DNA of 41,901 nt from a virus (lineage: Duplodnaviria > Heunggongvirae > Uroviricota > Caudoviricetes), in IMG/VR virus record IMGVR_UViG_2541047898_000007, one strand, 5' to 3'. Below the pieces are notes generated by a model. It ran no database searches, had not been told where the DNA came from, and saw nothing but the letters and a program-made list of their open reading frames with translations. Position numbers and translations under genes: made by a program. Shown here piece by piece: positions 38,302-41,901 of the stretch (positions are counted from its first letter, which is position 1; each line of letters starts with the position of its first letter).

Positions 38302-38978
38302 GCAAATACACCGAACTGATCACTAACTACCACGCTACCAAGCCACTCTTTTTTGACCATATAGATCTGAGCACCCGCCCGCTGATTGATGTGTCCAGCA
38401 CTATGTCAGGGCTTATAACAGCCTTCGATATTGATACTGCTGTCGGTGTACAGCTCGACATCCTCGGTCTGTGGATCGGACGCAGTCGCATAGTCAGCCA
38501 GCCAATTAGCGGAGTTTATTTCAGCTGGGACACTGACGGGCTTGGATATGACCAGGGCATCTGGCAGGGGCCATATGATCCTGATTCTGGCTATACGACG
38601 CTAAGCGATGAGACGTACCGCATCATTCTGAAAGCGAAAATCGCTATCAACAACTGGGACGGCCGGAACGATTCTCTGCCTCCCATCCTTGACGCTGCGA
38701 CTGCAGGTTCAGGCCTGAAGATGCAGATCGTCGACAACCAGGACATGACGATATCGGTCTGGGTATTCCCCGAGACTGATATTTCTGATGTGTCACTCGA
38801 ACTGATAGCTGCTATCAAACAGGGCTATCTCACCGTTAAAGCTGCTGGCGTATGGGCCGGTGATGTTGAAACGCCTTCGGTAGAAGCACCATCCGAGGGC
38901 TCTAAATTCTTTGGGTTTGATATGGATAACGAATACATCGGTGGGTTCGATGTTGGGGCATGGGGGACAATACTCTAA
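38298..38978 (+). CDS. Baseplate / tail protein I-like (Mu gp48-like)
   Basis: 226 aa; follows the J-like gene with 4 bp overlap. Confidence 0.5.
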   Translation: MSKYTELITNYHATKPLFFDHIDLSTRPLIDVSSTMSGLITAFDIDTAVGVQLDILGLWIGRSRIVSQPISGVYFSWDTDGLGYDQGIWQGPYDPDSGYTTLSDETYRIILKAKIAINNWDGRNDSLPPILDAATAGSGLKMQIVDNQDMTISVWVFPETDISDVSLELIAAIKQGYLTVKAAGVWAGDVETPSVEAPSEGSKFFGFDMDNEYIGGFDVGAWGTIL

Positions 38979-39889
38979 TGGCAATAAATAACTTTAAACC
39001 TTTCGCGACAGCAGCAAATGCTAACGTGACGGCCCAGGCTGACTGGGAAACACTTCCGGCTCTACTCTCTGGTTTCATGGCAGGAAAGGCATCCAGTGCG
39101 CAGGTAAACAAAGCTATTCGACAGGCCAGCTTTATTGCGGCAGCACTGGCACAGTACACGGCCAACAAAAGTGGGCTGGACGTTCTTGATGATGGTGACC
39201 TGAACGGGTTTATCTCCAAAATGGGGACCGCTTTTGGGAAAGATTTCCAGGCGCTTGACGCCACGCTGACGGCATTGGCTGGGCTCGCAACTGGTGCAAA
39301 TAAACTCCCGTATTTCACTGGAACTGATACAGCAGCTCAGACTGATTTAACTTCTGTTGGCCGTGACATTATTGGGAAAAATACTATTGCTGACATTCTC
39401 ACATACCTTGGTTTGGGAGAAGGCTCTGCATTACCTGTTGGTGTGCCTGTTCCATGGCCTTCAGCCACACCGCCAACAGGCTGGCTGAAATGCAACGGTG
39501 CGGCATTTTCTGCTGAAGAATACCCGGAACTGGCAAAGGCTTATCCAACAAATAAATTACCTGATTTACGCGGTGAGTTTATTCGTGGCTGGGATGACGG
39601 GCGCGGTATTGATGCAGGACGTGTTTTATTGAGTATTCAGGCCGGAATGCTGGAAAAGCACCGTCATCCTGTTGTCGCCAACGATGGGTATGACTCAAAA
39701 GAGGAATGGGAACTGGCGACAATCTTCAGAAGAGCATATACGCAAGGCAGGGGGCTTGATGCTGCCGCTGCCGGAGGGAGTCTGATCCCATCACCGACAC
39801 TTCATTCACGAGGGAGTATCGGTAATACTGGCGGGAGTGAAACCCGTCCACGAAATATTGCATTTAACTATATCGTGAGGGCTGCATAA
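38978..39889 (+). CDS. Tail fibre protein; constant N-terminal part up to about 39408 and invertible variable C-terminal part
   Basis: Start at ATG 38978 (TAATG overlap with upstream stop) within track ORF 38960-39889; C-terminal tail-collar-like motif PWPSATPPTGWLKCNGAAFSAEEYPELAKAYP; a hix-like crossover site lies inside the gene. Confidence 0.7.
   Translation: MAINNFKPFATAANANVTAQADWETLPALLSGFMAGKASSAQVNKAIRQASFIAAALAQYTANKSGLDVLDDGDLNGFISKMGTAFGKDFQALDATLTALAGLATGANKLPYFTGTDTAAQTDLTSVGRDIIGKNTIADILTYLGLGEGSALPVGVPVPWPSATPPTGWLKCNGAAFSAEEYPELAKAYPTNKLPDLRGEFIRGWDDGRGIDAGRVLLSIQAGMLEKHRHPVVANDGYDSKEEWELATIFRRAYTQGRGLDAAAAGGSLIPSPTLHSRGSIGNTGGSETRPRNIAFNYIVRAA
39396..39421. other. Left invertase crossover site (hix/gix-like, 26 bp) inside the tail fibre gene
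   Basis: TTCTCACATACC TT GGTTTGGGAGAA; 15 bp (39408-39422) is a perfect inverted copy of 41267-41281. Confidence 0.6.
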
Positions 39890-40491
39890 TGGATAACGCC
39901 GTATTAAATAGCGAGCTTATTACCACGAAGGCGGGGAATATTACCGTCTATAACTATGATGGTGAGACGCGGGAATATATTTCTGCATCAACTGAATATC
40001 TTGCAGTGGGTGTCGGTATTCCAGCATATTCCTGTTTAGACGCTCCTGGTACATCTAAGGCTGGTTATACAATTTGCCGTTCTGTGGATTTAAAATCATG
40101 GGAATATGTGTCAGACCATCGCGGTGAAATCGTCTATAACACCGAAACGGGAGATGCCAAAGAAATCACAGCACTAGGCGACTATCCCGAAAATACAACC
40201 ACTATCGCCCCGTTAACGCCATACGATAAATGGGATGGTGAAAAATGGGTGACAGATACTGAGGCACAACACGGTGCCGCAGTAGAAGCGGCAGAAGCAC
40301 AGCGCCAGTCACTGATTGATGCAGCAATGGCTTCCATCAGTCTGATTCAACTGAAATTGCAGGCCGGACGTAAACCGACGCAGGCAGAAACAACCAGACT
40401 TAACGCTGTGCTGGATTACATTGACGCGGTGACGGCAACAGATACCAGCACCGCGCCGGACGTCATCTGGCCTGAACTGCCGGAGGCGTAG
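39889..40491 (+). CDS. Tail fibre assembly protein (U-like)
   Basis: 200 aa; ATGA overlap with the fibre stop; C-terminus ...DVIWPELPEA. Confidence 0.6.
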   Translation: MDNAVLNSELITTKAGNITVYNYDGETREYISASTEYLAVGVGIPAYSCLDAPGTSKAGYTICRSVDLKSWEYVSDHRGEIVYNTETGDAKEITALGDYPENTTTIAPLTPYDKWDGEKWVTDTEAQHGAAVEAAEAQRQSLIDAAMASISLIQLKLQAGRKPTQAETTRLNAVLDYIDAVTATDTSTAPDVIWPELPEA

Positions 40492-40903
40492 GCCATTCAA
40501 TATCTGGAGCACTGGAAATATCAACCATTTCCAGTGCGTCCAGATAATCAAGCCATGAATTATATTGCGCCAGCTCCTCACCTTTCAGACGACCAATAGC
40601 AGCCTTTCCTGGCCACTGCTTACTGTTAATATATTCATTAACTCGATTTATGAGTGCCTGTTTTTTTCGTTCCGCTTCTGACAGTTGTTCTTCATGAGTT
40701 AGCGGCGGTACGTCATCCCATGCAGGATAGCCATCATCACCCGCAACTCTCACCTTCCCTGGAGGTGGGGACAGGTACTTAATAAATATATCCTCATCAA
40801 CTTCAACTCCATTATGAGGCCATAACCCAGACTCCTTATACTGACTTTCCAGAGTAAATGGGTAAAACATATTAGTTTTTGCATCGTAAAGATATTTACT
40901 CAT
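40463..40903 (-). CDS. Alternative tail fibre assembly protein (U'-like) within the invertible segment
   Basis: Start taken at the internal ATG (plus 40901-40903; MSKYLYDAKTNMFYPF) one nt after the upstream stop; C-terminus ...DIEWPTPPAVQAR parallels the + strand copy. Confidence 0.55.
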   Translation of the reverse strand: MSKYLYDAKTNMFYPFTLESQYKESGLWPHNGVEVDEDIFIKYLSPPPGKVRVAGDDGYPAWDDVPPLTHEEQLSEAERKKQALINRVNEYINSKQWPGKAAIGRLKGEELAQYNSWLDYLDALEMVDISSAPDIEWPTPPAVQAR

Positions 40904-40904
40904 T

Positions 40905-41300
40905 TTATCTTCCTGTAGCAAACCAGCGGCAACCAGCGACAGTTGGAACATTGAAGGATGGATTTCCTTTATCAAGAGATCCCAGGTTCTCTGCTATGAC
41001 ATTTGAGTTAGTCAATTTATAGAATTGCCATACTGACATTTTCCCTGCCACAGGAGCCTGGTCATGTTCATTAATAGAAATGACGGCTGTCGGAAATGGG
41101 ATAGGAAAATTAATCAAAACTTCATTTGTTGTGGCCTCAGTTAGCCCCCATTGTTCAATATAACCATCCGGGCTTCGTCTCCATCCCGTCGTTGTATCTC
41201 CCCCACACTCCCACGCTGACATATCAGGAATTTGGTTTTGCCCGTTACCCACATCCCGTTTTGCCGCTTCTCCCAAACCAACCTTTTTTATAACCATCAA
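40905..41300 (-). CDS. Alternative variable tail-fibre C-terminal segment (S'v-like), expressed only after inversion fuses it to the constant part
   Basis: 131 aa ORF whose 5' region crosses the right hix-like site; shares the GLGE crossover-encoded peptide with the + strand fibre. Confidence 0.55.
   Translation of the reverse strand: MMVIKKVGLGEAAKRDVGNGQNQIPDMSAWECGGDTTTGWRRSPDGYIEQWGLTEATTNEVLINFPIPFPTAVISINEHDQAPVAGKMSVWQFYKLTNSNVIAENLGSLDKGNPSFNVPTVAGCRWFATGR
41268..41293. other. Right invertase crossover site (hix/gix-like, 26 bp)
   Basis: TTCTCCCAAACC AA CCTTTTTTATAA, close to the hixL consensus TTCTTGAAAACCAAGGTTTTTGATAA as I recall it. Confidence 0.6.
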
Positions 41301-41352
41301 AAATCTGGTGATGCTTCGCCGTTTCTCCTGTTTTCATAACAGGAGAAATCCC

Positions 41353-41901
41353 ATGATTTACGGTTATGCCCGAGTATCAACAAACCACCAGGACACTGAA
41401 TTGCAACTAACGGCGCTCAAGTCAGCGGGTTGTGAGAAAATTTTTGAAGAGCATGCCAGCGGGAGGAAATCGAATCGGCCGGTTCTAAAACGGCTGATCG
41501 CCACTATGCAGCCGGGGGATGAACTGGTGGTCTGGAAGCTGGACAGGATAGGCCGCAACGTTCTGCATGCGCTGTTGATGTTCCAGCAGTTACAGGAAAA
41601 GGGTATCAACTTCCGCAGTATTACCGATGGCGTGGATCTCAAAACAGCCAGCGGCCGCTATAACTTTCGTAACATCCTTTCCGCAGCACAATATGAATCT
41701 GATCTTAATAGCGAACGTACCTTAGCAGGGCTGGCCGTAGCCAGGGCAAAAGGGCGAGTTGGTGGTCGCAGGCCTAAGTTCACGGATGAGCAATGGCGGG
41801 AAATGGGGGAGCGGATGGCAACCGGTGAATCACGACAAAGCGTATCAAAAACGTATGGAGTAGGGCTCTCAACTCTGTATAAAAAGTTTCCAGCTAGCTG
41901 A
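41353..41901 (+). CDS. Serine recombinase, DNA invertase (Gin/Hin/Cin/Pin family)
   Basis: Start at ATG 41353 (RBS aggag) within track ORF 41308-41901; MIYGYARVSTNHQDTELQ with catalytic Ser, resolvase core, C-terminal HTH; stop coincides with the window end. Confidence 0.85.
   Translation: MIYGYARVSTNHQDTELQLTALKSAGCEKIFEEHASGRKSNRPVLKRLIATMQPGDELVVWKLDRIGRNVLHALLMFQQLQEKGINFRSITDGVDLKTASGRYNFRNILSAAQYESDLNSERTLAGLAVARAKGRVGGRRPKFTDEQWREMGERMATGESRQSVSKTYGVGLSTLYKKFPAS

Follow-up and report, generated by a model that had tools for sequence, protein, structure and literature searches.

A predicted switch between two tail-fibre tips, of the e14 P-segment type, in a complete temperate phage

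We analysed the viral record IMGVR_UViG_2541047898_000007 of IMG/VR (Caudoviricetes; 41,901 nucleotides, referred to in full as the window), concentrating on the tail-fibre genes and the serine DNA invertase at its right-hand end. In all likelihood a working switch between two tail-fibre states, of the Gin/Cin/Pin type seen in the e14 P segment, occupies this end of what is a complete temperate phage. The cassette is complete and very probably active. Both states were found among relatives of the prophage, with the breakpoint at the central dinucleotide of the crossover sites. The switch as such is already known from e14 P-segment and Mu G-type systems, of which this prophage is a further example; its sole unusual point is the branch to which the invertase belongs, which is widespread yet unstudied.

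Crossover sites and orientation of the segment

A preliminary description of the region had placed two 26-bp hix-like sites in inverted orientation at 39396-39421 and 41268-41293, and both coordinates proved correct. The left site, TTCTCACATACC-TT-GGTTTGGGAGAA (39396-39421), lies inside the fibre gene, where it encodes ..ILTYLGLGE, and has one mismatch to the consensus; the right site, TTCTCCCAAACC-AA-CCTTTTTTATAA (41268-41293), has three. The central dinucleotides, complementary as had been proposed, can be read directly as TT at 39408-39409 and AA at 41280-41281, and the two imperfect palindromes carry the same 2-bp crossover dinucleotide in the same sense. When the consensus TTNTCNNAAACCWWGGTTTNNGANAA (with up to three mismatches allowed) was searched on both strands of all 41,901 bases, these two hix/gix/cix/pix-type sites were the sole matches; in 100 dinucleotide-preserving shuffles there were none, with 0 expected by chance. 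In an alignment, both sites lined up with P1 cixR and cixL, Mu gixL and gixR, and the two e14 sites, and the central TT fell on the annotated crossover of P1 cixR.

A repeat search of the window returned a 15-nt inverted repeat of 100% complementarity (39408-39422 / 41267-41281). The perfect 15-bp repeat of the preliminary description is therefore real, but its designation as a core is not apt, as the repeat is not centred on the site, being made up of the two central nucleotides, the inner half-site of 12 nt and a single extra base. It is identical to the crossover repeat of the e14 P segment (TTGGTTTGGGAGAAG; TTGGTTTGGGAGAAGG / CCTTCTCCCAAACCAA), where inversion was mapped experimentally (PMC12529663). 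Two other interpretations of the repeats were rejected: (i) a chance inverted repeat, given the empty shuffles and the alignment with annotated relatives, and (ii) a multi-site system resembling Min or a shufflon, because only two consensus sites occur in the window.

That the segment between these sites is invertible is borne out by relatives, in which it occurs both ways round, broken precisely at the central dinucleotides that had been predicted. Among deposited phages the nearest is Omnitron, an unannotated phage of Citrobacter (CP115737.1). The comparison covered the right half of the window, 20000-41901, 79% of which matched Omnitron at 95% identity; the flanks matched on the plus strand and 39408-41281 on the minus strand, with breakpoints at 39408, in the left site, and 41281, in the right site. 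The left junction of Omnitron reads ...ACC-TT-GGTTTGGGAGAA followed by GCGGCAAAACGG, the right-inner sequence of the window, while its right junction contains GGCTCTGCATTACC, the left-inner sequence of the window. These swapped junction sequences are exactly the product of exchange at TT/AA. Omnitron thus has the flipped state; it agrees with the prophage in the right site and in the catalytic domain of the invertase, but differs from it in the fibre N-terminus, the left outer half-site and the DNA-binding domain of that enzyme.

Of the viral contigs in IMG/VR, 25 carry the exact 26-mer of the right site with an identical 30-bp outer flank; the window itself is one of them (IMGVR_UViG_2565956724_000005). 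The tip facing the invertase was of the Gp53/AAK type in 13 of these and of the Collar type in 11, with one of another kind. Both sites could be located in 18 loci, drawn from the 25 contigs plus Omnitron and the window, and here the expressed tip was Collar in seven, of the Gp53/AAK type in eight and of other kinds in three. The complementary module lay at the opposite site, also among loci sharing the same left outer half-site. A one-genome-per-species collection yielded no match to the exact right site. One contig, IMGVR_UViG_2925939204_000007, has the exact right site and the invertase, with unrelated sequence (ACGATAAATAAAGCC...) inside and no left site detectable within 6 kb; it may represent a deleted or degenerate switch.

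The cassette (39394-41287) was also 99.6-99.9% identical to cassettes of e14-like Escherichia coli prophages. For instance, E. coli strains A32 and MIN10 carry a near-identical cassette in opposite orientations between identical flanking proteins (baseplate J, YmfQ, PinE and a GIY-YIG protein). Among complete E. coli genomes, the family of the constant fibre N-terminus was fused to Collar tips in 13 and to Gp53-like tips in at least seven. Within e14 itself, both orientations coexist in clonal cultures (PMC4272514), and a systematic survey of programmed inversions included fibre genes adjacent to DUF2612 (PMC9881135). The similarity to the cassettes of PinE-using, e14-like prophages ends a few bases from the crossover sites, beyond which the flanks are unrelated. 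Such comparisons suggest that cassettes have been swapped between phages at the crossover sites themselves.

Fibre tips and their chaperones

The constant N-terminal part of the fibre, Sc (amino acids 1-144; 38978-39409, plus strand, from the list of open reading frames and its translation), begins at an ATG (38978) that overlaps the stop codon of an upstream DUF2612 baseplate gene; Baseplate_J is also encoded upstream. The crossover TT supplies positions 2 and 3 of the Leu144 codon, and (L/V)GLGE is read in one and the same frame from either site; therefore, amino acids 1-144 can be joined to either tip, followed by the chaperone of that tip. Measured between the central dinucleotides, the invertible segment is 1870 bp long (39410-41279), in keeping with the ~1.87 kb given previously, and it has the opposite orientation in Omnitron.

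In the orientation sequenced, the segment supplies Sv, the fibre C-terminus of amino acids 145-303 (39410-39889, plus strand), whose translation contains a Collar domain (Pfam PF07484, 1.4e-15). The resulting protein of 303 amino acids, with a 159-amino-acid Collar tip, is identical to WP_021563658.1 of E. coli UMEA 3148-1, a match that makes this the probable strain of origin, and the central part of Sv is variable relative to e14 StfE when compared with K-12 stfE. Sv is followed by its assembly chaperone, a TfaE-like protein of 200 amino acids (39889-40491, plus strand; Pfam Caudo_TAP PF02413, 5.5e-32). On the minus strand lie the alternative, silent C-terminus Sv' (40905-41279), in which the Gp53-like C-terminal domain (Pfam PF21882, 2.6e-11) was recovered by in-silico inversion, and the Sv' assembly chaperone of 146 amino acids (40463-40903, with its ATG at 40903; Caudo_TAP, 2.7e-34). 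Inverting 39408-41281 in silico regenerated both sites and gave an open fibre of 268 amino acids with a 124-amino-acid Gp53-like_C tip and a stop codon at 40905-40907. The constant N-terminus is in frame with either C-terminus, and each is followed by its own chaperone, which agrees with the earlier proposal of two alternative fibre C-termini, each with an assembly chaperone: the tips are Collar and Gp53-like_C, there are two Caudo_TAP genes, and the frames are open. NCBIfam returned sub-threshold matches only, and no specific family, for the fibre, the chaperones and the invertase.

The two chaperone genes converge and share 29 bp at the 3' end of each (40463-40491), as do tfaP and tfaE of e14; U and U' of Mu are without overlap. 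Within the constant part of the fibre gene we also noted a 16-nt inverted repeat of 94% complementarity (39157-39172 / 39350-39365), which may be due to chance. As a whole, the window appears to be a trimmed but entire prophage, because the ATG of a tyrosine integrase (1-1194) and the stop codon of the invertase (41899-41901) mark its two ends.

The invertase, its candidate enhancer and its leader

Immediately to the right of the segment, as described previously, lies a full-length gene for a serine DNA invertase of 182 amino acids (41353-41901, plus strand); the window closes on the stop codon of this gene. Like other small serine recombinases, its product combines a resolvase-type catalytic domain bearing the Ser and Arg residues (Pfam PF00239, 3.6e-39) with a C-terminal helix-turn-helix (PF02796, HTH_7, 1.5e-9), both scoring above the cut-off, and it aligned end to end and without gaps with the Gin structures 3UJ3 and 4M6F (E = 1e-56). 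The preliminary description had named a catalytically dead enzyme, for example one with a mutated active-site Ser, together with a single orientation in deep long-read data, as grounds for refutation; on inspection, Ser9 is intact, as are the other catalytic residues, with Tyr5, Arg7, Ser9, Arg65, Arg68 and Phe87 all retained and conserved throughout the clade.

The invertase shares only 51-55% identity with Gin, Cin and PinE, compared with 77-83% among those three enzymes. The exact protein is encoded on at least 1000 contigs, mostly of E. coli. As a sample of its clade we took the 120 closest cluster representatives (79-100% identity), which derive from E. coli, Citrobacter, Klebsiella, Enterobacter, Salmonella, Serratia, Morganella and others and nearly all of which are labelled 'recombinase family protein'. 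Sampled members in Salmonella, Morganella and Serratia have the same fibre-Tfa-Tfa'-fibre' surroundings. Across 26 loci, the catalytic domain (amino acids 1-147) and the first 130 nt were essentially invariant, and the DNA-binding domain occurred in at least four mosaic versions, one of them Pin-like. A related prophage, in E. coli ET896, ends with the same invertase, adjoining yciI-tonB.

Strand exchange by Hin, Gin and Cin requires Fis and an enhancer. The annotated enhancer of P1 cin (nt 19-90 of the gene) sets the position at which an enhancer is to be expected in the prophage invertase, and we regard the homologous interval, 41371-41442, as a candidate. A motif scan with a degenerate Fis consensus recovered a pair of Fis-like 15-mers in gin, pinE and cin, with centres at nt 30 and 78, 48 bp apart and inside the annotated P1 enhancer, but such a scan has too little power to settle the case of the prophage gene. 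The prophage gene has two candidate Fis-like sites with the same 48-bp spacing between centres: site I (TATCAACAAACCACC, 41375-41389) is kept and close to canonical, and site II (CAGCGGGTTGTGAGA, 41423-41437) is without G(-7) and C(+7). Synonymous-site conservation in the candidate enhancer was only weakly elevated (0.51 vs 0.59; four clade genes and three canonical genes). The Fis-dependent enhancer suggested earlier for the 5' region of the gene is thus no more than a candidate: the homologous position keeps site I, but site II is degenerate and the Fis-control residues of the protein differ. Because of these two departures, Fis dependence of the invertase is unproven.

The residues in question are well characterized in Hin. 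Lys47, Arg48 and Lys51, with Gln151, Arg154 and Leu155, are contacts to the enhancer and Fis and are said to be specific to Fis-dependent invertases (McLean et al. 2013, PMC3798978), whereas Phe105, Met109 and Leu112 form a hydrophobic gate (Chang and Johnson 2015, PMC4513852). The latter study reported that the Hin F105N mutant inverts and cleaves independently of Fis, that the strongest hyperactive mutation falls on His107, and that characterized small serine recombinases are hydrophobic at positions 105, 109 and 112 (PMC4513852). In the prophage invertase, Hin F105, H107, M109 and L112 correspond to Asn, Arg, Ile and Ala, K51 to Ala, and Q151/R154/L155 to Glu/Glu/Arg; the Phe106 equivalent is kept, and Lys46 and Arg47 (Hin 47 and 48) are present. 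The residues at the Hin 105, 107, 109 and 112 positions are invariant in 120 of 120 clade representatives, helix E reading Y-N-F-R-N-I..A..Y throughout (F-F-F-H-V-M..L..M in Gin/Cin/Pin), and the Hin-51 equivalent is never basic among them. The 151/154/155 patch is variable in the clade.

The leader of the invertase gene contains a 12-bp perfect palindrome, GTTTCTCCTGTT-TTCAT-AACAGGAGAAAT (41321-41349, plus strand), whose 3' arm holds the Shine-Dalgarno sequence AGGAGA (41341-41346), 6 nt before the ATG. The predicted RNA hairpin folds at -25.5 kcal/mol (z = -3.8) and is kept in the Salmonella, Morganella and Serratia homologues with one compensatory change from U-A to C-G, while the flanks vary. 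A smaller hairpin lies beside it at 41307-41320. The arms of the palindrome begin with TTCTCC, like the half-sites, with a spacing of 25 bp as against 26 bp, and the pattern TTCTCC-N13-GGAGAA occurs once in the window, at this palindrome. The element may be a translational throttle, or else an operator or autoregulatory pseudo-site of the invertase; it resembles a 25-bp pseudo-site, which the invertase itself could bind. Rfam gave no match in 38900-41901. A scan for an invertase promoter and terminator returned nothing above shuffle expectation, and we therefore claim no promoter.

If the invertase works like its homologues Gin and Hin, its dimers would bind both 26-bp sites and then synapse. 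Double-strand cuts made by Ser9 at the central TT/AA would leave overhangs of 2 nt, after which one half of the tetramer would rotate by 180 degrees and the ends be religated, with 39410-41279 inverted. Inversion should be the only outcome, because the sites are inverted and the overhangs match. Only the module joined to the fibre gene of the late operon would be made in quantity; a population of lysogens would therefore release virions with one or the other receptor specificity. The two fibre states of Mu and P1 give different adsorption and host range. On this precedent, and given that the two receptor-binding domains are unrelated, the two states of the prophage are predicted to differ in host range. 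By analogy with e14, Mu and P1, any culture would be expected to hold a mixed population.

Alternative readings and known relatives

Several observations weigh against the reading of this region as an active switch of the Gin/Cin/Pin type. The evidence for both orientations comes from relatives and not from this clone; where the cassette is near-identical, the elements that carry it are users of PinE. No two IMG/VR loci with over 95% identity across more than 1.5 kb were found in opposite states, because the modules are too mosaic, and the cross-genome evidence therefore rests on relatives. An exact look-up in a collection of 15 billion proteins did not find the state-2 fusion protein. To these are added the promoter scan, the degenerate second Fis-like site, the Glu/Glu/Arg patch, and the Asn and Ala at the positions of Hin Phe105 and Lys51.

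The last of these points bear on control rather than on architecture. The invertase clade could work without the canonical Fis/enhancer invertasome, being naturally enhancer-independent or otherwise gated, with its activity limited by low expression, as the conserved leader hairpin or pseudo-site would occlude the ribosome-binding site. Such a reading would account for the distance of the enzyme from Gin, Cin and PinE, and draws on the altered helix E and the non-basic Hin-51 position in all 120 representatives. It also draws on the behaviour of the Hin mutants at positions 105 and 107 and on a gate that is normally hydrophobic (PMC4513852), on the replaced Fis contacts (PMC3798978), on the missing G(-7) and C(+7) of site II, and on the conservation of the leader hairpin across genera. 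Against it, Lys46 and Arg47 are retained, as are equivalents of Phe106 and Phe88, both of which are essential. In the homologous interval the gene still has the first Fis-like site and the 48-bp geometry. The second site is better in other members of the clade (e.g., TAGCAGGATGTGCTC in Morganella), about one third of which bear the canonical Q..RL patch on the same catalytic domain. Further, a natural enzyme will have co-evolved compensating residues, and the Fis consensus that we used was degenerate. On balance we consider altered control unlikely, though with an appreciable chance of being correct. The broader proposal, that a large Enterobacterales clade, always found beside fibre cassettes and with regulatory surfaces unlike those of any Fis-dependent invertase studied so far, inverts without the canonical invertasome and is limited instead by its leader palindrome, we regard as doubtful.

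Two further alternatives concern whether the switch works at all, and for whom. The switch could be a fossil in this lysogen, its genes and sites seemingly intact but inversion no longer taking place at a meaningful rate, owing to a silent invertase or a poor pair of sites. The three mismatches of the right site, the lack of a convincing invertase promoter, the sequestration of the ribosome-binding site in a strong hairpin and the absence from the record of a state-2 protein with this exact Sc would all fit such decay. It is nevertheless highly improbable, as the catalytic residues are all intact, the 25 contigs that have this very right site and leader are divided about 1:1 in orientation, Omnitron carries the flipped segment, and both the silent and the expressed modules retain open frames and chaperones. 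Alternatively, the cassette could also, or mainly, be an anti-phage device of the host. This idea stems from the silent-side open reading frame of 130 amino acids (40905-41297, minus strand), in which five right-flank codons are followed by VGLGE and then the Gp53-like tip, the architecture of e14 StfE2; StfE2 blocks adsorption of phage T2 (PMC12529663), and the silent-side frame, if expressed in the same way, would block adsorption of other phages. Its sequence similarity to StfE2 is weak, however, and its ATG at 41297 is not preceded by a Shine-Dalgarno sequence. We rejected an identity with StfE2, architecture alone being in common. A role in virion host range is also the simpler one, because the prophage looks complete from integrase to fibres, and we consider an anti-phage function very unlikely.

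As a two-state host-range switch, the cassette most closely resembles the e14 P segment. Besides the crossover repeat, the two have in common the gene order (Sc, Sv, tfa, then tfa' and Sv' on the opposite strand, then the invertase), a size of ~1.8-1.9 kb and the convergent 29-bp chaperone overlap. The Collar/TfaE module of e14 in K-12 is 87-90% identical to that of the prophage (87% at the nucleotide level for tfaE). Conversely, e14 is a defective lambdoid remnant, whereas the prophage is an intact 41.9-kb phage with a myovirus-type tail (DUF2612/Baseplate_J); the fibre N-terminus, the baseplate and the outer half-sites differ, and the invertase is 55% identical to PinE.

With the Mu G segment and Gin the prophage shares the common logic of Sc/Sv/U and U'/Sv', an invertase immediately to the right and 26-bp sites with a 2-bp crossover. 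The Mu segment is longer (3 kb, compared with 1870 bp), its fibres are much longer, and its central dinucleotides are TC/GA in place of TT/AA; there is no nucleotide similarity in the fibre modules, and Gin is 51% identical to the prophage enzyme, with different helix-E and Fis-contact residues. Compared with the P1 C segment and Cin, the prophage is 70% identical to P1 S at cixR over the end of Sc and the adjoining site, and the annotated crossover lies on the same TT; the P1 segment, however, spans 4.2 kb, cin lies on the other side of it, and the second Fis site, degenerate in the prophage, is conserved. The Hin system and H segment of Salmonella belong to the same recombinase family, have the same type of site and provide the mechanistic model for strand exchange and for its control by Fis and the enhancer (PMC3798978, PMC4513852); Hin, however, flips a promoter, whereas the switch of the prophage flips a coding C-terminus.

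Conceptually, the switch adds nothing to what is known from these systems, and its value lies in a clean and exact annotation of a host-range switch of the e14/Mu/P1 type, the public relatives of the prophage being unannotated or bearing the label 'recombinase family protein' only. In practical terms, exact crossover coordinates and both fibre isoforms are now available for the Omnitron-like phage family of E. coli and Citrobacter, together with near-identical fibre cassettes that appear to have been exchanged between unrelated phages exactly at their crossover sites. The analysis also brings out a well-populated clade of invertases whose sequence predicts altered gating by Fis and the enhancer, and which would offer a natural test case for the helix-E gating model developed for Hin.

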